Of a DNA stretch of 64,000 bases, positions 1 to 59,178 are shown piece after piece. A model generated the notes under the pieces. That model made no database searches. It saw only the letters and a program-made list of their open reading frames with translations, and had not been told where the DNA came from. This DNA is from an uncultured Pseudomonadales bacterium (GTDB taxonomy: Bacteria; Patescibacteriota; Microgenomatia; UBA1400; UBA12108). Positions within the stretch are counted from its first letter, which is position 1. Every line of letters starts with the position of its first letter. The position numbers and the translations under genes are program-made. Location of the stretch: contig CAZDRB010000001.1 of assembly GCA_964507925.1 (NCBI GenBank), positions 15,072 to 79,071 of the forward strand, given 5' to 3'.

Positions 1-2316
1 ATCCATCCACTTCTCGTCGAGTGTGGTGAGGTAGACATATTTTTCGATTTCGCGAATGGTAGCCTCACCAAACTGTTTTTCTCGGGCTTGATAGGTATCT
101 AGAGCAATTTTTTTGAGAGCTTTAATTATTACCTCGCTACTTTTGGTTTTTTTAAGCTCTTTGGCAAGCTGCTTTTGTGAGGCGTCGTCAAACGGGATGA
201 TCGTGATAAACTCCTTAACAATTGCCTCGATTTCGTCGCCACTAAATCCGTCGGTAAGCCTAGAATTTACCAGAATCTCGATTTCCGAAGCAACGAGCTC
301 GCTGATTCTTGTGGCAAGACTCTCGGGAGATGCCTCTGATTCCGCGAGGAGTTTGTCGCGAAGCTTGTAGATCACCTGGCGGTGTTTGTTCATAACGTCG
401 TCGTAGTCGACAACGCGCTTTCGCATATCAAAGTAAAAGCCCTCGACTTTGACTTGAGCCGATTCAAGTGCGCGGCTCACCATCGAGTGCTCAATTGCCT
501 CGTCTTCGGGGATCTTCATCATAGTCATGATCCCGGCGATTTTTTCTCCGCCAAAAATACGCATGAGATCATCTTCGAGCGAGACGTAGAAACGAGATGA
601 GCCAGGATCACCTTGACGACCTGAGCGACCTCTAAGCTGATTGTCAATACGACGAGAGTCATGACGCTCGGTACCTATGACGTGTAGCCCACCTACCTCG
701 ATGACTTTTTTATGTTCTTTTTCCCAGACTTTTTTGTCCATGCTGGATTTGTCTCCGCCAAGAACGATGTCCACACCGCGCCCGGCGATGTTGGTTGCGA
801 CCGTGATCCCACCGTATGATCCAGCAGAAGCGATAATCTTGGCTTCTTGGTCGTGATTTTTGGCGTTTAAGATCTGATGCGGGAGATTTTTTCTTTTTAG
901 GTACTTGGAAATTATCTGGTTATTGTCGATACTTTTGGTGCCGATCAAAACTGGCTGCCCATTTGCATGCCTGGTCTCGACCTCTTTGATAATGGCAGCG
1001 TACTTGACACGTGTTGTCTTATAGATAAAGTCGGGCGAGTCGAGGCGCTTAATCTCGCGGTGCGTGGGGATGATCGCGACATCAAGATTGTAGATTTTTT
1101 TGAACTCTTCGCCCTCGGTACTAGCCGTGCCTGTCATGCCTGAGAGGTGTTCGTACATGCGAAAATAGTTTTGGAGCGAGATAGTTGCGAGAGTACGAGA
1201 TTCTTGTTGGACGGCGACACCCTCCTTGGCTTCGATTGCCTGATGGAGACCATCAGAAAATCTCCGGCCGTACATCATGCGACCGGTATGCTCGTCGACG
1301 ATGATTACCTGACCTTCTTTGACGACGTAGTCGCGGTCGCGCTCAAAAAGTGAGGCTGCCTTGAGTGCTTGCTCGACGTGGTGAACAGTTTCGTAGCTTT
1401 CTTCGTAGAGATTTTTGATATTCAAGCGCTGCTCAAGTCGCCTGATACCATAGTCAGTGAGGGTAGCGGATTTTAGCTTTTCGTCGACGTCGTAGTCGGT
1501 ATCTTTGGTTAGAGTTTTGACTAGTTTTGCGTATTCGACATATTTATCAGTTGGTGTTGCATCAGGTGCAGAAATGATGAGCGGGGTTCTCGCCTCGTCA
1601 ATCAAGATCGAGTCAACCTCGTCGACGATGGCAAAGTAGTGACCACGCTGAACTTTGCCAGAGAGACTGTGAACCATGTGGTCACGAAGGTAATCAAAGC
1701 CAAACTCGTTGTTTGTTCCATAGGTCACGTCCGCGAGGTAGCTTTCTTTTCTTGGCACAGGGCGAAAGTGGGCGAGCCTGTCGTCGTCTTCTTTTTCGTC
1801 TTTGTATTTGAGGTCGAGTATTCCACCTGGTTGGTCACCCATTCCAGAATAGATCACTCCGACTGAGAGTCCGAGAAGAAGGTGAGCGCGTCCGTACCAG
1901 CCGGCGTCGCGGCGTGCCAAATAGTCGTTGACCGTGACAATGTGAACTCCTTGGCCAGATAAGGAGCGCACGTATGAAGCAAGAGTTGCCGAGAGAGTTT
2001 TACCCTCACCTGTTTTTTGCTCGGCAATTTTGCCCTGATAGAGCGAGAGCGCAGCCAGGATCTGGACATCGTAGGCTCGCTCGCCGGTCGTTCTTCTGAT
2101 TGCCTCACGAACGGTGGCCAGAGCCTCTGGCAAGAGCTCGTCGAGTGATTCACCACCCTGGAGGCGCTTTTTGAACTCGGCGGTTTTGCCTGGTAGTTCT
2201 TTGTCCTTGAGTTTTTGGATGCTCGCCTCAAAATCATTGACTTTTGACACTATCGGCGCGAGCTTGGAGAGATCACGGGCGTTGCTGTCAAAAAGTTTTG
2301 AGAGGAATCCTAACAT
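1..2316 (-). CDS. secA: Preprotein translocase ATPase SecA (N-terminal ~770 aa; gene continues past window start)
   Basis: rc of 2316..2260 translates MLGFLSKLFDSNARDL, the canonical SecA N-terminus. The frame stays open to position 1 (rc of 1..60 = TIREIEKYVYLTTLDEKWMD, SecA-like). Absent from the ORF track because it runs off the window edge. Confidence 0.9.
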   Translation of the reverse strand, partial: MLGFLSKLFDSNARDLSKLAPIVSKVNDFEASIQKLKDKELPGKTAEFKKRLQGGESLDELLPEALATVREAIRRTTGERAYDVQILAALSLYQGKIAEQKTGEGKTLSATLASYVRSLSGQGVHIVTVNDYLARRDAGWYGRAHLLLGLSVGVIYSGMGDQPGGILDLKYKDEKEDDDRLAHFRPVPRKESYLADVTYGTNNEFGFDYLRDHMVHSLSGKVQRGHYFAIVDEVDSILIDEARTPLIISAPDATPTDKYVEYAKLVKTLTKDTDYDVDEKLKSATLTDYGIRRLEQRLNIKNLYEESYETVHHVEQALKAASLFERDRDYVVKEGQVIIVDEHTGRMMYGRRFSDGLHQAIEAKEGVAVQQESRTLATISLQNYFRMYEHLSGMTGTASTEGEEFKKIYNLDVAIIPTHREIKRLDSPDFIYKTTRVKYAAIIKEVETRHANGQPVLIGTKSIDNNQIISKYLKRKNLPHQILNAKNHDQEAKIIASAGSYGGITVATNIAGRGVDIVLGGDKSSMDKKVWEKEHKKVIEVGGLHVIGTERHDSRRIDNQLRGRSGRQGDPGSSRFYVSLEDDLMRIFGGEKIAGIMTMMKIPEDEAIEHSMVSRALESAQVKVEGFYFDMRKRVVDYDDVMNKHRQVIYKLRDKLLAESEASPESLATRISELVASEIEILVNSRLTDGFSGDEIEAIVKEFITIIPFDDASQKQLAKELKKTKSSEVIIKALKKIALDTYQAREKQFGEATIREIEKYVYLTTLDEKWMD

Positions 2317-2336: not shown

Positions 2337-2966
2337 CTAGAGTTTTTGATTCACAAACTCGAGAAGTTCGCGATTGGATTGGCTGTAGTCGCTTGAGTCG
2401 TAAAAATACGTTTGCCAACCAGCTGATTTGACTCCATCAAGATTGTCCTGCTTGTTATCGATAAAAAGGATTTCTTCTGCGCGTACCCCGGCGCGGTCTG
2501 TAGCGATCTGGTAAATCTCAGGAAATGGTTTTTTTACTTTCTCGACACTACTGTCCACAATTACATCCCATGATATAGAAGGCAAAAGTTGTGCACTCCT
2601 GATTTCTGATAGCATCCCCGGATACATGTCCGTCAATAGTCCGATTCTTGCCCTGGATTTCGCATATTCGACAATATCCCAGATTCCCTTGTTTTGCTCG
2701 AAATGATTAACAAAATAGTTAAGGAATTTAAAATTTGGAGGAATTGTTAACTCTAGTTGAGTTGAAATTATTTGCAACATTTTTTCTGCGTCAATTTTAC
2801 CTGTTACAAGTTGATTATTGTGATCGCGAAAAATTGACTCAAATTTTATTGCAGAGTCTCCAGTTGCTCCTAACTCGGCTTTTAATATCTCCCATTTATC
2901 AGTCTCTGAAAAATCTTTGATCAATACGCCGCCGACATCGAAAAAGACAAAGGAAATCTTGCTCAT
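2337..2966 (-). CDS. HAD-superfamily hydrolase (haloacid dehalogenase-like phosphatase)
   Basis: N-terminal FFDVGGVL (DxG nucleophile motif) and C-terminal FIDNKQDNLDGVKSAGW (HAD motif IV-like). 209 aa. Confidence 0.6.
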   Translation of the reverse strand: MSKISFVFFDVGGVLIKDFSETDKWEILKAELGATGDSAIKFESIFRDHNNQLVTGKIDAEKMLQIISTQLELTIPPNFKFLNYFVNHFEQNKGIWDIVEYAKSRARIGLLTDMYPGMLSEIRSAQLLPSISWDVIVDSSVEKVKKPFPEIYQIATDRAGVRAEEILFIDNKQDNLDGVKSAGWQTYFYDSSDYSQSNRELLEFVNQKL

Positions 2967-4210
2967 CTTAGAACTTCTGGTAATTTGACTGATCCGTCGA
3001 CTTGCTGGAAGTTTTCCCAGATCGCGATCAACGTGCGGGTCGAGGCAAGGGCGGTATTATTGAGCATGTGGACATATTTGAGCGTCCCGTCCTCCGCTTG
3101 ATAGCGAATTCCGGCCCTGCGACTCTGAAAATCAGTCATGATCGAGTCTGAGGCTACCTCACCATACCCCTTTCTTCCTGGCATCCAGGCTTCGATATCA
3201 TATTTTTTGGCTTGAGGTTCGCCCATGTCACCTGTGCACATAAGGAGCACTCGGTATGGAATACCGAGATCCTGAAGAAGTTCTTCGGTAAACTCGAGCA
3301 TTTTTTCGTGCCAGGATTTGCTCTCTTCGAGATCCGCTTTGCATAGCACAACTTGCTCGATCTTCCAGAATTCGTGAACGCGGAAAAAGCCTTTGGTGTC
3401 ACGACCATACGAGCCGATCTCGCGCCGGTAACAGGGAGAAAAACCAACCATTTTGATAGGCAAATCTTTGGCTTTCAATGTTTCTCCGGCATAATAACTA
3501 ACTAGCGGGATCTCGGCAGTGCCTGCTAGAAAATAGTCATTTTTGGGATCAGTCTCGTCTTCTTCTAGTTTGTAAGTTTCTTTTTCGCCCCAGGGAAAGT
3601 GTCCGGTATTGATAAATGCTTGCCTGTTGTCGACAACTGGAGGAATCATGGGGGTATAGCCTTTTGCAACAAATTTGTTGAGGGCATATTGCATAAGCTT
3701 GATTTGAAGTAGGGCTGCCTCACCTTGGAGATAGTAACCGCGGAAGCCAGCGACTTTGGCACCACGCTCCAAGTCTAGCCAGCCATTTTGAGTCGCGATC
3801 TCAACATGATCCTTGGGCTCAAAATCAAATTCTGGTTTTTTACCCCATTCTCTTACGACAACATTTTCGGTTTCGTCTTTGCCGATTGGGACATCGTCAA
3901 GCGCCACATTGGGGATCTGGAGCATGAGATCGGCAAAGGAGTTCTCAAGAGTTTTAAGTTCTGGTTCGAGCTCTTCTAGTTCTCCCTTGAGTGCTTTACT
4001 TTCTGCTATGAGCTCGTCGGTGCGAGATTTTTTTAGCTCTTCGTTTAATAAGTTTCTTTTTCCACGTATTTTCTCTACTTGGGCAATGAGCGCTCTTCTT
4101 TTCCCGTCAATCTCTAGTAAATTATCCACGACCGCAGGATTAAGATTTTTATTTCTCGCGTTTTCCTTAACCTTGTCCGCGTGATCGCGGATGTATTGTA
4201 TGTCTAGCAT
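2963..4210 (-). CDS. serS: Seryl-tRNA synthetase
   Basis: 415 aa. N-terminal coiled-coil MLDIQYIRDHADKVKENARNKNL plus class II core (FRREIGSYGRDTKGFFRVHEF, GYGEVAS). 4-nt overlap with the downstream HAD gene. Confidence 0.9.
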   Translation of the reverse strand: MLDIQYIRDHADKVKENARNKNLNPAVVDNLLEIDGKRRALIAQVEKIRGKRNLLNEELKKSRTDELIAESKALKGELEELEPELKTLENSFADLMLQIPNVALDDVPIGKDETENVVVREWGKKPEFDFEPKDHVEIATQNGWLDLERGAKVAGFRGYYLQGEAALLQIKLMQYALNKFVAKGYTPMIPPVVDNRQAFINTGHFPWGEKETYKLEEDETDPKNDYFLAGTAEIPLVSYYAGETLKAKDLPIKMVGFSPCYRREIGSYGRDTKGFFRVHEFWKIEQVVLCKADLEESKSWHEKMLEFTEELLQDLGIPYRVLLMCTGDMGEPQAKKYDIEAWMPGRKGYGEVASDSIMTDFQSRRAGIRYQAEDGTLKYVHMLNNTALASTRTLIAIWENFQQVDGSVKLPEVLR

Positions 4211-6048: not shown

Positions 6049-6440
6049 ATTTCCTCCGGTATAAAAAATTCTGTTTGAATATTGTCAGGGTCTCTAAATG
6101 CGATATAAGGATATTTCCCAGCAAATTTTTCTATTCCTATTGTTGGAACTTTCATTTCTCTTAACCTATGTTCCAACAATTTAAGATCGGTCATAGATTT
6201 TACATGAAAGGCAATATGATCTAGGCCGATGCGTTTTTCGTCAAATCTATCTTTTGCAAGTTCTTGCCATTGCACAAACCAACAGGGAATTCCGACCGAT
6301 AGGAGACTGAAAGAGTTTGTATCATCCATCTTTATTTTGAGCTGAAATAATTTTTCGTAAAACGATCTAGTGACAGAGATATCGCTCACAGTGAGTGTGG
6401 TGTGCGCTATCCCGTCGAAAGTTAAGTTGTCGTCCTGCAT
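6045..6440 (-). CDS. VOC/glyoxalase-bleomycin resistance family protein
   Basis: HTTLTVSDISVTRSFYEKLF ... GLDHIAFHV, typical glyoxalase-fold metal-binding pattern. Start moved to MQDDNLTF (ATG at 6440); the 5' extension in the track lacks similarity. Confidence 0.6.
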   Translation of the reverse strand: MQDDNLTFDGIAHTTLTVSDISVTRSFYEKLFQLKIKMDDTNSFSLLSVGIPCWFVQWQELAKDRFDEKRIGLDHIAFHVKSMTDLKLLEHRLREMKVPTIGIEKFAGKYPYIAFRDPDNIQTEFFIPEEI

Positions 6441-7026: not shown

Positions 7027-7806
7027 CTATAATGGGTTGGGGACGTCGATAAATTCCACTTCGAGGTTATCTTTGAAATGGGCTTTGAGTTTTTTACCTA
7101 GTTCTTGCACCCCGAATACTTCGGTCGCGTAGTGACCGCAGAGAAAATAGCTGATCCCTTCTTCCTGCATGGCGTGAAGTCTAGATTCCGAAGATTCTCC
7201 TGATATATAGAGCTCGACACCTTTTGCTTTCATTTCCTCGATATTAGCCTGATAAGGTTTACCTGCTCCTGAGACTATACCAATGGTTTGGACCTTGTCA
7301 GCCCCAGCTTTGATCGCGAGAACGTCGTGAGAAAAAATCTTGGCGCATTTTTCTGAGAGATCATTAAGATCAGTTGGCTTTGGTAATTTGGCGACAAAGC
7401 CCCATTCGTCATAGAGTGTGTCAATAATCTTAGCTCCTAAGAGCTTGGCAATTGTGGCGTTGTTGCCAAATTCTTTTTGGGCATCAAGCGCGTAGTGATA
7501 GTCAGCAATAGTTAGATCATTTTTAATAATCAAAGACAATCTCTCTTGACTACTTTTAGAGTATCGTGAACCTACGGTGCGAGTGTCAAAACCGTGGTGA
7601 AAAATACAGTACTGTGCTTGTGCATTGATTGCCTCTCGCAAAAAATCACTATTAAGACTTACTCCTAGTGCGACTTTCTTGACCTCCATCGATCCATGGA
7701 ATTGAATGCCATTAGCCGCATACTCATCAACTTTTCTTGCCTTGGCCAAGAAATCTTGACCGATAGTATTCTCGATAAAAGTAGTAAGCTCGTCACGTAA
7801 GACCAT
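7027..7806 (-). CDS. Nif3-family dinuclear metal-centre protein (GTP cyclohydrolase 1 type 2 homolog)
   Basis: YCIFHHGFD (cf. Nif3 THHP metal site) and C-terminal FLCGHYATEVFG (Nif3 GHYxSE motif). Start at MVLRDELTTF; overlaps the lysS 3' end. Confidence 0.65.
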   Translation of the reverse strand: MVLRDELTTFIENTIGQDFLAKARKVDEYAANGIQFHGSMEVKKVALGVSLNSDFLREAINAQAQYCIFHHGFDTRTVGSRYSKSSQERLSLIIKNDLTIADYHYALDAQKEFGNNATIAKLLGAKIIDTLYDEWGFVAKLPKPTDLNDLSEKCAKIFSHDVLAIKAGADKVQTIGIVSGAGKPYQANIEEMKAKGVELYISGESSESRLHAMQEEGISYFLCGHYATEVFGVQELGKKLKAHFKDNLEVEFIDVPNPL

Positions 7807-9843: not shown

Positions 9844-10695
9844 TTACTTGGTTGCAGAAAAGAGTGTGTGTCCCCAAATTCCGCTTTGCCTAGTAATCCA
9901 TTGATATTTACAGGCATAGGCATTGCCGAGCTGATATTTATTCATGATTCCGAATTTGTGTAGTAGCCAATAAATGGGTAGTCCTGGAAGAGAACAAAGA
10001 TAAAAATATCTCGCTACTCTGCGAGTTTTACTAGAGTAATCTTCGCTTACAATCTGCTTGAAACCAGTAAGTTTCATTATCTTTTTGTGTTCGGTTGTAG
10101 ATAAGAGGTTTGGCATTTCCCAACCGTCAATAAATTTTTTTGTTTGAATTTTTTCTAACTTTGTCTTGGGGAGACGATAATAGGTAAATTCCCCGACAAC
10201 TAGCTTGCCACCTGGCTTTAACAATCTATATGCTTCTCTATAAAAATCTTGTTTATCTGCGACGTGACAAATGGTTTCTATCGCAATAATTGCATCAAAG
10301 CTATTGTCATTGAAAGTTGTTTTGGTATAGTCCATTTCGAGGTATTTTATTTTGTCTAAAAGGTCGCGATCTCTTGCAATCTTTGTTGCCTCTTTGATTT
10401 GCATCTGAGACAGGGTGACGCCAATACATTGACATCCAACTTTTGAAGCAAACCAACAGGTGGCCTCTCCTAATCCACTACCTGCATCAAGGAGTGTGCT
10501 GTAAGGATGAAGATTTAAGAGTTCGCTGATTTTTTCTAGGAGTCGGTGAGTTGCTTCTGACCTGTTGTGAACAGATTCGTCCCAATAACCATAGTTCATG
10601 CTGTAGTTTTTGTGTCTAAATAGGACCGTGAAATAATCAAAAAAAGTTTGGTCGTAATAATCTCTGACCCTACGCTTGGGCGTGTCTAGCTTCAT
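9844..10695 (-). CDS. Class I SAM-dependent methyltransferase
   Basis: LLDAGSGLGEATCWFA (motif I), FDAIIAIETICHV, LLKPGGKLVV. Start at MKLDTPKRR (ATG at 10695). Confidence 0.75.
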   Translation of the reverse strand: MKLDTPKRRVRDYYDQTFFDYFTVLFRHKNYSMNYGYWDESVHNRSEATHRLLEKISELLNLHPYSTLLDAGSGLGEATCWFASKVGCQCIGVTLSQMQIKEATKIARDRDLLDKIKYLEMDYTKTTFNDNSFDAIIAIETICHVADKQDFYREAYRLLKPGGKLVVGEFTYYRLPKTKLEKIQTKKFIDGWEMPNLLSTTEHKKIMKLTGFKQIVSEDYSSKTRRVARYFYLCSLPGLPIYWLLHKFGIMNKYQLGNAYACKYQWITRQSGIWGHTLFSATK

Positions 10696-15315: not shown

Positions 15316-15594
15316 ATGGATACAAAATCGAATGAGCTACTTTTAACTGAGATCCGCAAGCTGGCTGAGGCTGTGACCAAGCTCAACAAGCACCAATCTG
15401 CCTGGTACTCATTTGGGCGTGGGATTATGTCAGCTCTGGGGTATTTTGTAGGAGCAGCAATATTGGTTGGCGTCATCGTATATCTTTTGCAGAGAGTAGA
15501 TCTCGTTCCGATTATTGGGGAATGGCTTGGGGGAGTGATCAACGAGACAATCAAGAACTCTATGGGCAATCAATTAATGTTTCCGAATAAGTGA
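15316..15594 (+). CDS. Small membrane protein (92 aa), hypothetical
   Basis: One TM helix (GIMSALGYFVGAAILVGVIVYLL). Its stop codon is the first nucleotides of repeat copy 1. Confidence 0.4.
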   Translation: MDTKSNELLLTEIRKLAEAVTKLNKHQSAWYSFGRGIMSALGYFVGAAILVGVIVYLLQRVDLVPIIGEWLGGVINETIKNSMGNQLMFPNK

Positions 15595-15697
15595 CCCTAG
15601 ACCTTCCGCATCCAAACCGCCTTATCACACATCTGATTGATCTATATAACCTATTCGCTCCAGATATGAGAATATCATCGGTAGCTATATCCTTCTA
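15591..15697 (+). repeat. 107-nt direct repeat, copy 1 (gtgaccctagaccttccgcatccaaaccg ... ggtagctatatccttcta)
   Basis: Hand alignment to 16128..16234: equal length, about two-thirds identical ungapped, with strongly conserved 5' (first 30 nt about 26/30) and 3' ends. Confidence 0.6.
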
Positions 15698-15758
15698 ATG
15701 TTTCAAATCATAATTTCATAGTGACCTTGAGATAGATACTCCCCTAGTCTGGTAAAAT

Positions 15759-16097
15759 GTGGAAATGAGTCAAGAGGTAAGAACTGATATGGAAGATGCC
15801 TGGGCATCAGCCATAGCTCAGCAAGCAGAGGAAGTAATTGAAGAAGGTGCAATTGTAGTAGTGCAGGATGATCCATATACTTGGAGATATAGATCTGACC
15901 ATCCTTTACATAAACACCCTCATATATTTAGGGATGGCCAAGAAGAAGGTGAGCCAAACCTACTGATTAGAGATGTAGATGGAAGTTTTAATGTTGTAAC
16001 ATTACTAAACATTACTTTAGCAATGACTAGACACACAAATAGAGATGTCCACTTAGTGAACGATGAAAATGACGTATTAAATTTACTGAACGGTTAA
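15759..16097 (+). CDS. Hypothetical acidic protein (112 aa) between the two 107-nt repeats
   Basis: ORF with GTG at 15759 or ATG at 15765 (MSQEV). TAAAAT at 15753, 6 nt, then the ATG at 15765. No domain recognised. Confidence 0.4.
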   Translation: MEMSQEVRTDMEDAWASAIAQQAEEVIEEGAIVVVQDDPYTWRYRSDHPLHKHPHIFRDGQEEGEPNLLIRDVDGSFNVVTLLNITLAMTRHTNRDVHLVNDENDVLNLLNG

Positions 16098-16127
16098 TTG
16101 CAAAAATACGTTGATATATAGGTTAAT

Positions 16128-16234
16128 GTGACCCTAGAACTTCCAGATCCAAACCGTATTATATCTAATCTGCTAGAGATTTTCGATCTGTTCAACCCAT
16201 TCATAAAATCACCAGGGTTGGCTATATCCTCTTA
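16128..16234 (+). repeat. 107-nt direct repeat, copy 2 (gtgaccctagaacttccagatccaaaccg ... ggttggctatatcctctta)
   Basis: See copy 1. Begins 30 nt after the stop of the 15759..16097 ORF. Confidence 0.6.
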
Positions 16235-16245
16235 GATTATCAAAC

Positions 16246-16539
16246 CTATTTATCCTTGCACAACGCTAAACACACCCCATTGTTGTTGTAACACCACGGA
16301 TCGCCCTTGCTATATGGACCCTTGCTTGCAGTTCGAGTTCCCAAATAGTGTCTATCATCACAGCTGCCGTTTTTCGGAGGTACTCCCATTTTAATACACT
16401 CATCGTAACAAAACTGATAGTTCGTCTTTGATTTCGGACCTCTAACTGAGTAAATAAGGCCGGATAAAGCCAAGATTAAAAGAGCGCCAGTAGCAACTAC
16501 CTTAATCACATTGTCAAAATTTAACTTAATAGAGCTCAT
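16246..16539 (-). CDS. Small cysteine-rich secreted/membrane-anchored protein (97 aa, 6 Cys)
   Basis: N-terminal signal anchor (VVATGALLILALSGLIY), then QFCYDECIKMGVPPKNGSCDDRHYLGTRTASKGPYSKGDPWCYNNNGVCLALC with 6 Cys in a ~50 aa module. Confidence 0.5.
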   Translation of the reverse strand: MSSIKLNFDNVIKVVATGALLILALSGLIYSVRGPKSKTNYQFCYDECIKMGVPPKNGSCDDRHYLGTRTASKGPYSKGDPWCYNNNGVCLALCKDK

Positions 16540-16569
16540 GGTGTAAGTATATACCTCCTCAACGATGGA

Positions 16570-17118
16570 TTATCCTAATAAGTCAAATGGATGTGATGGG
16601 AGTTCCATGCTTCCATACATTCGCTCGAGCTCAGCATACATTTTGTGGAAGAGGCGCTCACCCAAATCAAGACACATTTGTTCAATAATTGGAAAAGAGC
16701 TAATTTCAAATTTGGAGTTTGTAACCTGTATCCCCAATCCTTTTGTTGGTGGATATCCAGGCATATTTGTTACTCCAGGAGGTACGATCTCAACACGTCG
16801 ATACATACTATCGCTATGAGCTACAGTTTGGTCTCTATGGGCAATGATTTGGTAGTGAAGTGTTTGATATCTCAGGTTTGTATATCCTGGCCATGTACTA
16901 TCAAGCGGTCTACCATATGGGCGATTAGACTTAAACGCACGTGAGTATGCGCTTATTATATTGTCCTGAAGGTGTAAAAAACCCTCATCTTTGATGGACT
17001 TAACTGTTCTTAAAAATAATCTAGTTGTGTATAGCGCCTCAGCAATGTCTTGATGAGCAATGGCCAGCTTGTATAGAGAAATTCTTTCTTCCTCTGATAC
17101 ACCAGGATGACTAATCAT
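16570..17118 (-). CDS. Hypothetical protein (182 aa), no recognisable domain
   Basis: Clean ORF divergently arranged with the 587 aa ORF. Island cargo. Confidence 0.5.
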   Translation of the reverse strand: MISHPGVSEEERISLYKLAIAHQDIAEALYTTRLFLRTVKSIKDEGFLHLQDNIISAYSRAFKSNRPYGRPLDSTWPGYTNLRYQTLHYQIIAHRDQTVAHSDSMYRRVEIVPPGVTNMPGYPPTKGLGIQVTNSKFEISSFPIIEQMCLDLGERLFHKMYAELERMYGSMELPSHPFDLLG

Positions 17119-17189
17119 ATTTGTACTATTCTACAACTGATGAAAACAAAGTCATCTTTACCCAATGCTTGGCATATAATTAGCTTTAT

Positions 17190-18953
17190 ATGTCAAAGGC
17201 TATAGATTTATTTCACTCTGTTAGCATGCAGAGCCGCATGTCGCCTGAGAACAGCTCTGCGATAAAAACACTACAACAATCAGCAGAAGCTTTTGAGTTT
17301 GAAGGCAATTATTTCTCGGCTGGTTATACCTACTCAACAATAGTGATGTCTCTTATGGGGCGGCATGTGAACACATACCCATACATCAATAAAGCTGATG
17401 AGTGTTACGACAAGTGCCTATCAAATCCTCACAACCATGTGCTTGAAAAAATAGCATGTCTCAAAAAGAAAATTAACGTGTTATCCGAGTACTCATGGAT
17501 GTTTAGGCACACTGAAAAAGAAATGTTGGACATAAAAACTGAACAAACGAAATTAGCAAGTCAGATTGAGACAATAATATCGAAGGAGTTTTCGGGTACC
17601 CCAGATGCAGGTAAGTATCTTGTTCATGGATTCCAGATTAATACAAATCTGGATGGTAAATGGTGGCAAACTTTCACAAATTGGGAAACTGATGCTGACT
17701 CAGAGCAGTTTGGTGGAGGAACAATAACTATAAATATAGCCTCAGCGTTTACCCTTAGAGTTGCTCTGGTTGACTACGCCGGTGCAAACGAAATCGCAGA
17801 TAAATATCCTGATTTTTTTATATCACCCGGACTAAAAGGATGGAAGGAGGCCGTTAAAGGTTTTTGTTTTCCAGAACAGGCAGACTTCTACTTTGAAAAA
17901 GCATCAACAATTTTTAACAGTGATAATAAGCCGCCAGAGGTTTTGAGCAATCACGGAGGACACTGGTCATCAAAAAATTGGGAGTTGTGGGGCACTTATT
18001 TTCGGTCTAGAGCAGAACTAGCACTAGCACGTAAAGATAAAGTTCATGTTAGGGAACATATCTTTCGTGCTTCAGAGATAATTGGCAAAGAGACCTTACA
18101 TTGGATTGACGAAGGTGTATCGAGATATCGCATCCTGGTTAAAGCGCTTGCAATACTACTTTCAGATAACTCAGAAATTTCCTTGAGTGAAGTAAGAAAA
18201 ATGTTTGAGTACGAGACGTATTTAAGCCACGCTTCTCACTACGATCATTTAATCGACGAGTTTATCTCGGGTACCAATTATGCATTGGATAACTTTAGAA
18301 AACATCCAGAGAGAGAGTTTACAGAAGGTAATCTTGCAAGAGCACTTACCGCCTTTGACAAAATTCCGATTATGGACAGTGGTTTAGTTGATGCAATACG
18401 ACCTCGCCTAGAGGAGCGTGCCCATGATGCGATATTTGGAGTACACAAAACCTGGATAGCTCGTACACTCGAAACAATATCAGATGAAGATGTTTTGCGT
18501 AAAGTAGTTCTTAAGTTAGTTCAGGCTTCGTTGCCAATTTACGCACAAATTATCCACGGCCCAACTGAACTAGGTACTGACATAGTTGCACTAGTAAAAA
18601 TTGACGAAGTGCTAATACTTAAACAATATCAGGTGAAATGCGGCAACATTACTAAGGCGAAATGGCCTGGTATAAAAGAGCAGTTAGAGGAAATATTTGA
18701 TGTAAAAGATAGACCATCTCTACCAGAAAATAGTAAAAACGCAAAAAAAATAGGCATATTGATATACAACGGTCATCCTAACCCCATAACTTCTCCGGTA
18801 ATAAACAGTTGGTTTGAAGTACAAAAAACAGAAAGGGATAGGCAATATGAGCATATACATCTAGATGCTTTTGTTAATTGGATCATCGAAGATAAGCTAT
18901 TGACCGAGTTTAGACAGGTCCTAACACAGCTCAATGTCCCCATTACAGAGTAG
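17190..18953 (+). CDS. Hypothetical protein (587 aa), no recognisable domain (no Walker, HNH, HEPN or PLD motif seen)
   Basis: Long uninterrupted ORF with TATAAT at 17175, about 9 nt before the ATG. Largest cargo gene of the island. Confidence 0.6.
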   Translation: MSKAIDLFHSVSMQSRMSPENSSAIKTLQQSAEAFEFEGNYFSAGYTYSTIVMSLMGRHVNTYPYINKADECYDKCLSNPHNHVLEKIACLKKKINVLSEYSWMFRHTEKEMLDIKTEQTKLASQIETIISKEFSGTPDAGKYLVHGFQINTNLDGKWWQTFTNWETDADSEQFGGGTITINIASAFTLRVALVDYAGANEIADKYPDFFISPGLKGWKEAVKGFCFPEQADFYFEKASTIFNSDNKPPEVLSNHGGHWSSKNWELWGTYFRSRAELALARKDKVHVREHIFRASEIIGKETLHWIDEGVSRYRILVKALAILLSDNSEISLSEVRKMFEYETYLSHASHYDHLIDEFISGTNYALDNFRKHPEREFTEGNLARALTAFDKIPIMDSGLVDAIRPRLEERAHDAIFGVHKTWIARTLETISDEDVLRKVVLKLVQASLPIYAQIIHGPTELGTDIVALVKIDEVLILKQYQVKCGNITKAKWPGIKEQLEEIFDVKDRPSLPENSKNAKKIGILIYNGHPNPITSPVINSWFEVQKTERDRQYEHIHLDAFVNWIIEDKLLTEFRQVLTQLNVPITE

Positions 18954-19019
18954 GATCTCCTTAGATTTGTGTTCTATTAGACTCTACGTATACTATTAGA
19001 AAACAGGGAAATAACAGCG

Positions 19020-19304
19020 ATGGCAAAATCGAGCACCAGTTATCAATCAGGCCAAACAGGAAATCCTAAAGGCAGGCCTGCAAAGGGCTACTCAATAACA
19101 GAGATGTTTAGGAGTATGCTAGATAGCGACAGTGAGATGCGAGAAAAACTAGCTAAAGTGATCCTGCGAAAGGCATTAGATGGTGATATGGCTGCCTGTC
19201 GCCTTATCTGGTCATACATGGATGGGTTGCCGACAAACAAAATATCAATTACTGAACTCCCAAGACCACTCCCCCTTCTTGGCGGAGTCACATCTGAAAA
19301 CTAA
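19020..19304 (+). CDS. DUF5681-like phage/integrative-element protein
   Basis: N-terminal QSGQTGNPKGRPAKG matches the conserved SGNPxGRPKG signature of DUF5681 proteins from phages and integrative elements. Confidence 0.55.
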   Translation: MAKSSTSYQSGQTGNPKGRPAKGYSITEMFRSMLDSDSEMREKLAKVILRKALDGDMAACRLIWSYMDGLPTNKISITELPRPLPLLGGVTSEN

Positions 19305-19513
19305 TCACGGATTTTTCTGTTGTCTTTTTCTTGCTTAACACTATTACGACCATATAGGGTCAGAAATAGAACTGTACCAATACACGCCACAACTAAACCT
19401 AGAAATAGAAAAGAAAACACACTGAGTGCTAGATTGATCATGCTTACCTCCTTACCTGGATAATAACATAAATATATACCAGCAGTAAGTCGACCAAGAG
19501 TAAGGATTTTCAT
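19301..19513 (-). CDS. Small membrane protein (70 aa), hypothetical
   Basis: Single TM (LALSVFSFLFLGLVVACIGTVLFLTLY). Overlaps the DUF5681 stop by 4 nt. Confidence 0.35.
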   Translation of the reverse strand: MKILTLGRLTAGIYLCYYPGKEVSMINLALSVFSFLFLGLVVACIGTVLFLTLYGRNSVKQEKDNRKIRD

Positions 19514-19521
19514 AACCTTAA

Positions 19522-19737
19522 GTGGTTATGAGTAAATCAATATATCTTCAAGTCGGTAAGCGGATACAAGAGCTACGTCGAAAGAAGGGTGTGACTCAAG
19601 AAAAGCTCGCATTAGATGCTGGTTTGAACCGCGCCTACATAGGCTACATCGAGCGAGGAGAACGTAGTCCCTCGGTACTCACTCTCTTTAGGATAGCCAG
19701 ATCACTCAAAATTAAACTTTACGAGCTATTTATCTAA
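19522..19737 (+). CDS. XRE-family helix-turn-helix transcriptional regulator (Cro/CI-type)
   Basis: QELRRKKGVTQEKLALDAGLNRAYIGYIERGERSPSVLTLFRIARSL is a textbook HTH_3/XRE fold. Confidence 0.8.
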   Translation: MVMSKSIYLQVGKRIQELRRKKGVTQEKLALDAGLNRAYIGYIERGERSPSVLTLFRIARSLKIKLYELFI

Positions 19738-19813
19738 AAACTTGACTCTGATTAAATTTTTCTGTTAGCCTGGATGTAAGTTAATCATTATTGGTACCAA
19801 ACTCCCTACGTGG

Positions 19814-19866
19814 AACGGTGCTTTCAACTTTTCGCTAGATAGCGAGATCTTGAGGCACCGTTTTTT
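19814..19866 (+). terminator. Compound hairpin (AACGGTGC ... GCACCGTT with inner TCGCTA-gat-AGCGA) followed by a T-run
   Basis: Read directly. Lies between the XRE gene and the recombinase gene. Could be a terminator or a recombinase regulatory element. Confidence 0.35.
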
Positions 19867-20052
19867 GTTGTATGACAATAAAACAAGCAAGAAAAATACT
19901 TGGAAAAATGGCAGACGGGATAGCTGATGAGGTTATCCAAGCCGACATTGAAGTGGCTGAGTTTTTTACATCCATTTTTTTCGATCACATACGTTACGGT
20001 GGACACGATGGGGTGGTGCATCCACAACAAACGTGCCATAATTAGGCACTAT

Positions 20053-21582
20053 ATGACACGTAGAGCTGTTATTTACATACGGGTATCCGATCAGTCACAA
20101 ATCGAAAACAATAGCCTAGAAAGCCAGCTGAAGACTTGTGACGCATTTGCGAAGCAGAGTGGTTACGAAGTCATCAAGATATATCGTGAAGAGGGTAAAT
20201 CTGCCAAGGAGGTTTTTACAAGAGAGAAACTCAAAGAGTTAATGTCGTTTTGTTTGGTAAAAGCAAATCACATAGATGCGATGATCGTATACAAATACGA
20301 TCGATTCAGTCGAAACTCTGCCGATGGCCAAGCAGCGATTGCACTATTGGCTAAGGCTGGTGTGGATGTGATATCTGCCACCGAGGGAGCAGAAGATAAT
20401 CCAAGTGGAAGAGCCATGCGTACGATTTTACTAGCTTTAGCACAGCTAGATAACGAGATAAAGGGCGAGCGAGTACATGACAATATGCAGGCCGTCTTTC
20501 GAAAAGGGTTCTGGCCATTTAAATGCCCAGTCGGATACAAGAGATTTTCAAGAAACAAAGAGGAAAACATGGGGATTCCTCCTTTAGTTGATAAGCACTT
20601 GGGACCCATTGTGACAGAGATGTTCAAGAACGCCGCAAGCGGTATCTACTCTAAGGAACAACTAGCCAGGATGATGAACAGCCAAGGTTTTGGTGACCAT
20701 TATCGTGCCAAATCTACACACAAGATTGTCGATAGCATTTTACGCAAGACTTTTTACTATGGTGAGATGTATGGACCAAAGTGGAAGGAACGGGTATGGG
20801 GTAAGCATGAGCCATTAACCGATAAAGAAACTTGGGAGTTAGCATACAACAGAGTCATATTAAAAAAGAAAAACTATGTCTACCAGGACGAAGCAAAATA
20901 TCCCCTTAAAGGGCATCTACGTTGTAGTGAGTGTGGTGCGCCGCTCACCACGTCACCATCTACTGGACGTAGTAAAAAGTACTACTACTATGAGTGTCGC
21001 AGCAAGTCATGCAAAAAGATCAGGACGCTTGCTGACGACGCGCATAAGCAGTTTGAGTTGATATTAGAACAAATCAAGCCTTCCCCTAGAGTACTACGCC
21101 TTTTCGATAGCACTGTCTTTTCTACATGGGATAAGGAAATCGCTCGCTCCGAAGCGTCACTCGAAAAAGCAGATCAACACCTTTTGACGCTCAAAAATGA
21201 CATTACAAATATACGTAAGTCTGTAGATAATGGACTATTAACGATGGAGGAGGGAAAAGAACAGATTGAGATAGTTAGGCAAAACATCGCCGTTGCTGAG
21301 ATTGAGAAGGCAGATATTAAGTGTAGTCATTATGATAAGGAAGTTGTGAGAAACTTTACTCGCTCATTTTTAGAAAATATTGATGGACTATGGCGAGACA
21401 TGAACTTATCAAAGAAGCAGGCTTTTCTCGCTCTCATTTTTCCAAACGGCATCTTATGTGATAACAACCGAAAAATCCGAACCGATCAATTGTCCCCATC
21501 CTTCGAGCTAATTGTGGCTCTTAGTGAGCAAAAAGGTGAAAATGTGACCCCACAGGGAATCGAACCCTGGTTAGCAGAATGA
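20053..21582 (+). CDS. Large serine recombinase (resolvase-type catalytic domain + recombinase domain + zinc ribbon)
   Basis: AVIYIRVSDQSQ (catalytic Ser region), YKYDRFSRN, recombinase domain, CSECGAPL ... YECRSKSC zinc ribbon, C-terminal coiled coil. Start at MTRRAVIYIRVSD (ATG 20053). The last 38 nt overlap tRNA-Glu on the opposite strand. Confidence 0.85.
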   Translation: MTRRAVIYIRVSDQSQIENNSLESQLKTCDAFAKQSGYEVIKIYREEGKSAKEVFTREKLKELMSFCLVKANHIDAMIVYKYDRFSRNSADGQAAIALLAKAGVDVISATEGAEDNPSGRAMRTILLALAQLDNEIKGERVHDNMQAVFRKGFWPFKCPVGYKRFSRNKEENMGIPPLVDKHLGPIVTEMFKNAASGIYSKEQLARMMNSQGFGDHYRAKSTHKIVDSILRKTFYYGEMYGPKWKERVWGKHEPLTDKETWELAYNRVILKKKNYVYQDEAKYPLKGHLRCSECGAPLTTSPSTGRSKKYYYYECRSKSCKKIRTLADDAHKQFELILEQIKPSPRVLRLFDSTVFSTWDKEIARSEASLEKADQHLLTLKNDITNIRKSVDNGLLTMEEGKEQIEIVRQNIAVAEIEKADIKCSHYDKEVVRNFTRSFLENIDGLWRDMNLSKKQAFLALIFPNGILCDNNRKIRTDQLSPSFELIVALSEQKGENVTPQGIEPWLAE

Positions 21583-21616
21583 GAATCTGCTGTCCTAGCC
21601 ACTAGACGATGGGGCC
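21545..21616 (-). tRNA. tRNA-Glu (anticodon CUC)
   Basis: Hand-folded: acceptor GGCCCCA/TGGGGTC, D-arm GTCT-AGTGGCTAG-GGAC, anticodon stem GCAGA/TCTGC with loop TTCTCAT (U33, CUC, A37), T-arm CAGGG-TTCGATT-CCCTG, discriminator A. No encoded CCA. Confidence 0.85.
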
Positions 21617-58892: not shown

Positions 58893-59178
58893 GTGCCTTG
58901 GGTAGGCTAGATGATCGCTCCGACGTAAAGTCGGAGAGGAAAGTCCAGACAGCAGTGTGCAGGGTGTCTCGACGTAAAGTCGGGAACGGGTAACCGCTAG
59001 TTAGAGCAACAGAGACTACGACTCACCCGCAAGGGAAGAGAGTGAAAAGGGCAATCCTCCCCGCTGCAACCGACGAATAGGCCGACAAAGACTGACGCAC
59101 ACCAGAGGCCTGAAGCTTGCGGGCATAGATAAATGATCATCTGCAAAACAGAATCTGGCTTATGCCTACCCAAGGCGC
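58893..59178 (+). ncRNA. rnpB: RNase P RNA (bacterial type, reduced ~285 nt)
   Basis: P1 closes with a perfect 13-bp helix: GCCTTGGGTAGGC (58895-) / GCCTACCCAAGGC (59164-59176). P4 strands GAGGAAAGTCCAGAC (cf. GAGGAAAGUCCGGGC) and ACAGAATCTGGCTTATG (cf. ACAGAACCCGGCUUA). Confidence 0.8.

Follow-up and report, generated by a model that had tools for sequence, protein, structure and literature searches.

Two 120-nt repeats near a tRNA-Glu gene in a Patescibacteria genome as probable attachment-site junctions of tandem serine-integrase elements

The window analyzed here is a stretch of 64,000 nucleotides from an uncultured bacterium deposited as Pseudomonadales and placed by GTDB in the Patescibacteriota (assembly GCA_964507925.1, contig CAZDRB010000001.1, positions 15,072 to 79,071 of the forward strand); all positions are window coordinates unless a locus is named. 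It carries two diverged direct repeats of ~120 nt, here called units, followed by a gene for a large serine recombinase (integrase) which runs into the 3' end of a tRNA-Glu gene (Table 1). The GC content of the segment from 13 to 21.5 kb is 0.39-0.42, compared to 0.45-0.49 in its flanks; the elements bounded by the units lie inside this segment, which ends at the tRNA-Glu gene. The genes between unit 2 and the regulator upstream of the integrase are all singletons at 90% identity and likewise lie in a region low in GC, and the single open reading frame (ORF) between the units is an ORFan with no homolog among 5.8 billion proteins, so that a comparison of synteny through it is impossible. The reading put forward here is that the units are probably the left attachment sites (attL), each composed of a recombination core and a P' arm, of two tandem elements that target tRNA-Glu by means of a large serine integrase of the kind encoded at 19927-21582. 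The older and the younger of these proposed elements are termed E1 and E2.

Table 1. Features of the window and of related loci (positions in window coordinates).
Feature	Position	Strand	Remarks
92-aa DUF5665 membrane-protein gene, host flank (B arm)	15316..15594	+	TGA stop is nt 2-4 of the core
Unit 1	15591..15710	+	core GTGACCC 15591-15597; GAACC-type motif CCAAACC 15612-15618; frame 15591-15698 (VTLDLPHPNRLITHLIDLYNLFAPDMRISSVAISF, then stop)
Unit 1 end motif TTCAAATCA	15702-15710	+	
110-aa acidic ORFan (112 aa from GTG 15759)	15765..16097	+	sole gene between units 1 and 2
Unit 2	16128..16247	+	core GTGACCC 16128-16134; GAACC-type motif CCAAACC 16149-16155; frame 16128-16235 (VTLELPDPNRIISNLLEIFDLFNPFIKSPGLAISS, then stop)
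Unit 2 end motif ATCAAACC	16239-16246	+	
97-aa Cys-rich membrane ORF	16246-16539	-	E2 cargo
182-aa ORF	16570-17118	-	E2 cargo
587-aa ORF	17190-18953	+	E2 cargo
DUF5681 protein	19020-19304	+	E2 cargo
70-aa membrane ORF	19301-19513	-	E2 cargo
XRE/Cro-type helix-turn-helix (HTH) regulator	19522..19737	+	HTH_3 E=5e-15; just upstream of integrase
Large serine recombinase (integrase)	19927..21582	+	551 aa, integrated form
tRNA-Glu(CUC)	21544..21616	-	integration target; 3' end on + strand is GTGACCCC
attR core GTGACCC	21544-21550		T-loop complement TCGAACC 21560-21566
L021 (PFDI01000002)			unit, 4.2 kb, integrase 53% identical to that of the window, abutting tRNA-Glu
L012 (CAYPQF010000014)			unit, 5.1 kb, integrase 54% identical, abutting tRNA-Glu
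L018 (CAYRKM010000003)			unit, 4.5 kb, integrase 56% identical; locus ends before any tRNA
L010			unit, then integrase fragment running into putative tRNA-Lys 3' half
L024, L009, L015, L013 (L013 is CAYHMW010000003)			unit, 0.6-3.4 kb, tRNA-Glu
L014			unit, 1 kb, tRNA-Met (2270-2343)

The repeat pair had been described in an earlier note as two copies of equal length and about two-thirds identity at 15591-15697 and 16128-16234, the first beginning on the stop codon of the upstream gene and the second 30 nt past the stop (16097) of the 112/110-aa acidic ORF. These statements hold: the copies align without gaps with 71 of 108 nt identical (the last base of the stop codon included), and copy 1 starts with GTGA, in which GTG 15591-15593 overlaps TGA 15592-15594. 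Random pairs of 108-mers from the window are on average 25.2% identical (SD 4.3%), with a maximum of 45% in 200,000 trials, and a 29-nt pattern of the head of the repeat occurs at two sites in the window, which are the copies themselves (0 expected by chance). What the note had overlooked is the content of the copies, as each is exactly one ORF of 35 codons from GTG to stop (15591..15698, TAA; 16128..16235, TAG), and the extension of the conserved unit by ~12 nt past the stop codon to a T(C/T)(A/G)AACC motif. Among the six frames, this is the only one that is open in both copies; between them, 28 of 35 positions score positive in BLOSUM, and the mismatches fall 13/7/17 on codon positions 1/2/3. 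With the edges set by comparison with 28 further full-length units, the units span 15591-15710 and 16128-16247 and are identical at 78 of 120 positions.

The earlier note had taken a lack of further copies in relatives as the mark of a one-off local duplication; instead, a family was found in 24 loci, for the most part from metagenome-assembled genomes of Patescibacteria, which hold 30 full-length and several degenerate units (about 35 in total). A stricter first DNA pattern (D/E at position 4, R at position 10) had no match in genomes, a degenerate DNA pattern for the N-terminus of the frame yielded the first two metagenome loci, and an exhaustive hidden Markov model (HMM) search yielded 11 short proteins with the motif, mostly as their last 35 residues. 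The loci, referred to below by number (L), were assembled from the contigs of HMM-matched proteins and from a refined pattern scan of GTDB genomes. The named hosts are Patescibacteria (Woese-, Roizman- and Pacebacteria, and unclassified members). Seven metagenome-assembled genomes with units and integrase (L008, L009, L010, L012, L013, L017, and L018; GC 0.34-0.47) are labeled as uncultured Gammaproteobacteria/Pseudomonadales, which may reflect mislabeling or a binning error, or else spread of the elements across phyla. Arrays of two to four units on the same strand are common, with spacers of 0.4-1.7 kb that contain unrelated small genes.

Alignment of the units with their flanks shows a sharp 5' edge at GTGACCCTA, upstream of which there is no conservation, and a 3' edge ~120 nt further on, at T(C/T)(A/G)AACC, 10-15 nt beyond the stop. 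The frame has 35-37 codons in 19 of the 30 full-length units, a premature stop in eight and a run-on in three, and head-less and tail-only fragments are also present in the family; premature stops and partial fragments are as expected of relics. In the ~15 nt between its stop and its 3' edge, the unit looks like a tRNA T-arm in reverse complement (GGGTAATCGAACCA and ACAGGTAGTTGAACCC, compared to ACAGGGAATCGAACCC in tRNA-Glu), as seen in the window at 15699-15710 and 16236-16247, in L005 at about 10195-10215 and in L007 at about 445-465. A GAACC-type motif hence occurs twice per unit, in the arm and in the T-arm-like 3' end, and the latter may have been left over from an ancestral attP of tRNA origin, or may serve as a second site of binding. 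A tRNA or tmRNA pseudogene was rejected as the nature of the unit, since neither ARAGORN nor the Rfam tRNA model recognizes a tRNA or tmRNA there and the likeness to a tRNA complement is limited to the core and the GAACC-type motifs.

The unit peptides have no match in Pfam or PHROG and are absent from a collection of 15 billion proteins; a word search with the concatenated peptides gave no match, and a profile word search returned known members only. The top match of the peptide profile is P0006, a protein of 3048 aa with 52 stretches that match profile positions 7-20, which is probably a repeat protein of leucine-rich-repeat-like type matched by composition. The gene directly after the unit encodes a polytopic membrane protein of 486-488 aa on the opposite strand in two genomes (L002 683-2149, -; L005 10229-11689, -), which may be shared cargo or a syntenic host gene. 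In L003, a BrnT/BrnA-like toxin-antitoxin pair, recognized by sequence reading alone, lies between two units on the opposite strand to them (2684-3311, +), and a tail-only unit fragment (~2655-2703) overlaps the region upstream of it.

The protein encoded at 19927-21582 is composed of Resolvase, Recombinase and zinc-ribbon domains (PF00239, 1.7e-28; PF07508, 3.7e-8; PF13408, 3.5e-7), matches integrase family PHROG 95 (3.6e-74) and contains the motif ...AVIYIRVSDQSQ...; domain order and length (551 aa) are those of large serine recombinases (~450-600 aa). From the GTG ACC at 21544 onward, its last 12 codons correspond to the 3' end of tRNA-Glu read in reverse complement, and its stop codon (TGA 21580-21582) lies in the complement of the anticodon loop (TTCTCAT), as is also the case in L021 and L012. 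The integrases of all three loci end ...K(G/S)EN·VT at gaaaat·GTGACCCC-tRNA (here and below, a dot marks the junction), and in all three an intact tRNA stands at one end of the element with the integrase inside, which is the configuration that Islander takes as its criterion. The L021 element also has a counterpart of the XRE/Cro-type regulator (E=5e-13). More generally, a unit is found 0.6-6.6 kb from a tRNA 3' end and in matching orientation in 9 of 17 genome loci (Glu in eight, Met in one), in addition to the window. Patescibacteria genomes have only few tRNA-Glu genes per megabase, hence the presence of a correctly oriented tRNA-Glu within 7 kb, as seen in the window and in 8 of the 17 loci, is far beyond chance. 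In L010, the complement of a putative tRNA-Lys(UUU) 3' half with the core GTGAGCC was observed at 1-120 (-), where the locus is cut and ARAGORN makes no call. The integrase family may have switched among tRNA targets that have the acceptor end ...TCAC in common.

The junction itself is seen in three classes, namely conserved integrase 3' end, core GTGACCC and tRNA (attR type), conserved integrase 3' end, core and unit (L004; attP type or tandem junction), and unrelated flank, core and unit (attL type). The second class stems from P0009, the only database protein with a long region in front of the unit; its alignment to positions 372-541 of the integrase spans 170 residues (46% identity, E=3e-48). 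This alignment stops at the same Val-Thr (...EDL·VT), and the ORF then runs in frame through a complete unit; P0014 is likely a second, decayed fusion of integrase and unit. The integrase ORFs of the window, L021, L012, and L004 thus all align up to the Val-Thr encoded by the GTG ACC of the core, with the unit frame in phase, and an ORF crosses the junction as in integrases of the Mx8/SSV type.

A further link between unit and tRNA is provided by the spacing of a short motif, as RAACY is located at nt 19-23 in 7 of 7 tRNA arms and at nt 24-28 in 30 of 30 unit arms. In serine integrases, the motif bound by the zinc-ribbon domain lies 5 bp nearer to the center in attB than in attP half-sites (positions 11-19 vs. 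16-24; Rutherford et al., PMC3783163). RAACY is 5 bp further out in the unit arms, which supports, for the right-hand arms, a reading of the unit arm as P' and of the tRNA arm as B', and the published attB/attP register, if applied here, would place the central dinucleotide, and with it the crossover, inside GTGACCC.

In the model suggested by these data, attP would lie within the 3' end of the integrase gene, so that the 7-bp core GTGACCC serves both as the Val-Thr codons and as the complement of the tRNA acceptor end, and the P' arm to the right of the core would comprise the integrase-binding motif, the last 35 integrase codons and ~12 nt more. Integration would join the integrase body to the tRNA, giving the 551-aa protein that ends VTPQGIEPWLAE, while the core and P' arm, i.e., the unit, would remain at the element's far end. 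From the topology of site-specific recombination it follows that whatever lies to the right of the core at this far end is the P' arm, which the excised circle would join to the integrase body, and since body and unit both read GTG ACC as codons, they would join in frame. Excision of E2 is hence predicted to rebuild an integrase of 574 aa that ends ...SEQKGEN-VTLELPDPNRIISNLLEIFDLFNPFIKSPGLAISS, with the peptide of unit 2 as an alternative C-terminal tail that would be translated only as part of the integrase. This arrangement would account for a coding signature without conserved translation signals, for the sharp 5' edge and the frozen head of the unit, and for the frequent calling of chimeric ORFs; the odd short ORFs and chimeric C-termini produced by gene callers at unit loci are explained by the same reading. 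A candidate offered by the earlier note, recombination sites of a cassette, was essentially right in that the units are probably attachment-site junctions of integrated elements.

For the window, we infer an ancestral state in which the DUF5665 gene was convergent on tRNA-Glu, with its TGA overlapping the tRNA 3' end. Integration of E1 would then have left unit 1 (15591-15710), and integration of E2 (16128-21550) would have left unit 2; E2 appears intact, with its cargo of ORFans and the DUF5681 protein, the XRE-type regulator and the integrase, while E1 (15591-16127) would have decayed to the 110-aa ORFan as its remnant cargo. The predicted attP junction is ...GGTGAAAAT·GTGACCC·TAGAACTTCC... 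(in longer form ...GAGCAAAAAGGTGAAAAT·GTGACCC·TAGAACTTCCAGATCCAAACC...), and attB is predicted to read ...GGTTAAT or ...CCGAATAA·GTGACCCC·ACAGGGAATCG.... Upon excision of E2, the latter would appear as ...ATATAGGTTAAT·GTGACCCC·ACAGGGAATCGAACC..., and upon loss of both E1 and E2 as ...TTTCCGAATAA·GTGACCCC·ACAGGG....

Several observations weigh against this reading. No excised circle or empty site was observed, and phage, plasmid and viral-contig collections contained no units, no relatives of the integrase and no fusion of integrase and tail. L004 is a contig of 1.4 kb, for which attP and a tandem junction are both possible. The left arms have no mirrored GAACC motif, and the reconstructed attP and attB are only weakly dyad-symmetric (at most 10/24), so that the spacing argument holds for only half of the site; the attachment-site model does not account for the likeness of the unit 3' end to a T-arm. 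In the window, no trace of an integrase could be detected upstream of unit 2, and E1 may hence be of another nature. Recombination of attP with attL or attR is not normal for serine integrases, which leaves no clear route to tandem arrays, and arrays of three or four units with spacers of 0.5-1.7 kb (L002, L003, L007, and L017) are more cassette-like than simple decay predicts. Many loci have no tRNA within the DNA available. In L013 (~7152-7205; ~3707-3757, -), the left flank of the unit and that of the tRNA-Glu 3' end are ~94% identical over at least 51 nt, i.e., the left arms are duplicated as well, beyond what a simple attL/attR model provides for, and the remainder is masked by a run of N. 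In L018, the integrase ends GATAAT GTGA and is followed by a segment of ~88 nt that is not a tRNA and has two hairpin-like stretches; the same segment is found directly 5' of the unit of that locus (1-90 and ~6145-6235, -), which is cut there. Either a tandem duplication or insertion of a segment into the core may underlie this arrangement.

The array structure is also what speaks for an integron-like explanation, in which the units are recombination sites (an analog of attC, or an alternative attB) for a trans-acting serine recombinase that moves single-gene cassettes. Such a system would produce same-strand arrays with one or two unrelated small genes in each spacer of 0.4-1.7 kb, as found in L002, L003, L007, L017, and the window, where the spacer genes include NUDIX, cupin, SET, methyltransferase and BrnT/BrnA genes as well as ORFans; an integrase is nearby in the window, and serine integrases are not ready builders of tandem arrays. 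However, the units have no attC-type hairpin, no inverted repeats at their ends and no consensus base pairs, there is no IntI tyrosine recombinase among the scanned neighbors, and no cassette was found in two different arrays. The GAACC spacing in the units is like that of attP rather than attB, and a pure DNA site leaves their coding signature unexplained, hence a cassette array is considered unlikely.

That the units are constrained at the level of a protein is evident from several measures. Across units, the column entropy by codon position is 0.68/0.41/1.02, and 32% of the differing codons are synonymous in the 35-codon frame, compared to 16% and 7% in the shifted frames. The 35-codon frame is open in 12 of 14 units, while each of the other five frames is stopped in 7 to 14 of the 14. 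Ile12, Phe22, and Leu15 are invariant residues whose synonymous sites vary freely, whereas in codons 1-3 (GTG ACC CTA) and Asn9 (AAC) the synonymous sites are also invariant in all 14 units that had not been selected there, which argues for an additional constraint on the head at the nucleotide level. The second genome scan had picked its 16 units by RTGACCCTA, and these were left out of this count. The earlier note was correct as to the pattern of conserved ends and a diverged middle (identity between the copies is highest in the head, 26/30, and lowest in the middle, 29/54) and not as to RNA as its cause. Judged from the sequence, the head would be the recombination core and integrase-binding arm, constrained as nucleotides, and the middle would be coding with free third positions.

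The coding signature could also be taken to mean that the units are a multi-copy family of independent genes for a 35-aa protein, which start with GTG and are translated on their own, e.g., by coupling to the upstream gene, in variable islands. In line with this, the frame is intact in 19 of 30 units with clear purifying selection at the amino acid level, the GTG of L002_589 and that of unit 1 in the window overlap an upstream TGA, an arrangement typical of translational coupling, and the database entry P0012 was called as an ORF of exactly 35 aa. Against it stands that nothing is conserved upstream of the GTG, that codons 1-3 are frozen at synonymous sites and conservation runs past the stop codon, and that there is no Pfam or PHROG match. 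A Shine-Dalgarno (SD)-like motif precedes just 2 of 30 units, which is a weak test as the host also seldom uses such motifs (4/22). In addition, the GTG ACC coincides with the integrase Val-Thr codons found at the junction to the tRNA, a unit is fused in frame to an integrase in L004, and the systematic placement of the units opposite a tRNA 3' end is left unexplained, so that independent small genes appear improbable. The SD count of the host stems from the long ORFs of the window, of which 4 of 22 have an SD-like 4-mer at -20..-4, with a random expectation of 12%; the organism seems to make little use of SD motifs.

A structured non-coding RNA, 3'UTR element or terminator that was duplicated after two genes, the functional RNA (small RNA or 3'UTR element) preferred by the earlier note, would fit the position of both copies directly after ORFs and their conserved ends. 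It is nevertheless very improbable, since the folds of both copies on both strands are no more stable than shuffled sequences (z-scores from -0.34 to +0.73), RNAalifold predicts 0 pairs for 12 homologs, Rfam has no match at the units either at the gathering threshold or at E<=10, and the substitutions show a 3-nt periodicity. A local duplication, or the template and variable repeat of a diversity-generating retroelement, as two ~110-nt repeats 537 nt apart with 66% identity might suggest, can practically be dismissed, because homologs of the units are scattered over many genomes and settings that are unrelated to each other, the mismatches are not specific to adenine (12 or 13 of 42 involve A in either copy) and no reverse transcriptase is among the genes scanned around the repeats.

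Elements that resemble the proposed attachment-site junctions in part are known. Islands linked to tRNA genes with an att repeat at the far end, tandem accretion and decay have been described by Islander (PMC4383910) and as tycheposons in Prochlorococcus (bioRxiv 10.1101/2020.12.28.424599). As in these, an integrase-bearing element abuts the tRNA 3' end and a direct att repeat marks the far end, newer arrivals would have pushed older elements outward and left fragments and scattered att repeats, and the cargo consists mostly of ORFans and accessory genes. In contrast, those islands use almost exclusively tyrosine integrases and their far-end repeat is a displaced tRNA fragment of ~40 nt or more, while here a large serine recombinase is found, identity of the far end with the tRNA is confined to GTGACCC apart from the loosely T-arm-like motif, and the repeat is this core of 7 bp followed by ~113 nt of P' arm derived from the element. 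An attP inside the integrase gene has been reported for IntP of myxophage Mx8, with alteration of the C-terminus (PMC6070905; Tojo et al., 1996, cited in PMC4383910), and for archaeal "suicidal" integrases of the SSV type, where it was called "so far restricted to archaea" (PMC7253208). The present system would share with both the location of the site within the integrase ORF, so that integration alters or splits the gene and the parts come to lie at opposite ends of the element, and with Mx8 the exchange of the C-terminal end alone. However, Mx8 and SSV integrases are tyrosine recombinases, whereas here only serine recombinase domains are present, and the bacterial serine integrase would keep all of its catalytic and DNA-binding domains and swap a 35-aa tail for one of 10 aa encoded by the tRNA.

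With the Listeria A118/LI integrase (PMC3783163), the system has in common the Resolvase, Recombinase and zinc-ribbon domains, a short core between unrelated arms and, on the right-hand side, a distal motif that would be 5 bp nearer to the center in attB, with the end of GAACC at nt 23 of the tRNA arms but at nt 28 of the unit arms. It differs in that the motif is seen in the right half-sites only, with unconvincing left arms and dyad symmetry, in that the target is a tRNA 3' end instead of a protein-coding gene or an intergenic site, and in that no recombination directionality factor was recognized here. In the integration-dependent immunity of cluster G/P mycobacteriophages (e.g., BPs, PMC4557955), attP lies inside the repressor gene, and there, too, the integrated and free forms have different C-termini, which in these phages works as a sensor of the integration state. 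There, the affected gene is that of the repressor, the tail that is lost acts as a degradation tag similar to ssrA and a tyrosine recombinase carries out integration, whereas here the integrase gene itself would be affected. Integron arrays are similar in their ~120-nt repeats of the same orientation between small, unrelated, often orphan or toxin-antitoxin genes, yet here there is no attC hairpin and no IntI, and the repeats encode protein and are linked to the 3' end of a tRNA.

The general phenomenon is known, while the combination of a serine integrase that targets a tRNA 3' end, an attP in its own ORF and a displaceable, conserved 35-aa tail appears to be new. Targeting of tRNA genes and attP within the integrase gene have been documented separately, in the literature found only for tyrosine recombinases, and are combined here. 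A limited literature search found no later report of an attP inside an integrase gene and nothing for Patescibacteria, an absence that is not proof. It is conceivable, if only tentatively proposed, that Patescibacteria, and possibly other phyla, harbor an undescribed family of large serine integrases which target the 3' acceptor end of tRNAs (Glu, also Lys and Met) with an attP core in their own frame. The reversible swap of a conserved, amphipathic 35-aa C-terminal tail for a short tRNA-encoded one might then act as a sensor or switch of the integration state, through activity, stability or directionality and without a separate directionality factor, and displaced tails might build up to become the most frequent repeat of these reduced genomes, from which islands could grow.

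The reading of the units as attachment-site junctions turns an unexplained repeat into the map of a mobile element with its ends, a 7-bp core, candidate attP and attB sites and a cognate integrase, in a host group, the Patescibacteria or candidate phyla radiation (CPR), whose mobile elements are poorly charted and for which genetic tools are scarce. If true, it would provide a natural pair of serine integrase and att sites aimed at a universally present tRNA site, and a test case for the regulation of directionality by exchange of the integrase C-terminus.

Elsewhere in the window, at 58899-59176, a bacterial class A RNase P RNA was detected with a score of 104.5 (gathering threshold 100), of which 278 nt were matched to the 367-position model; this RNase P RNA is unusually short.

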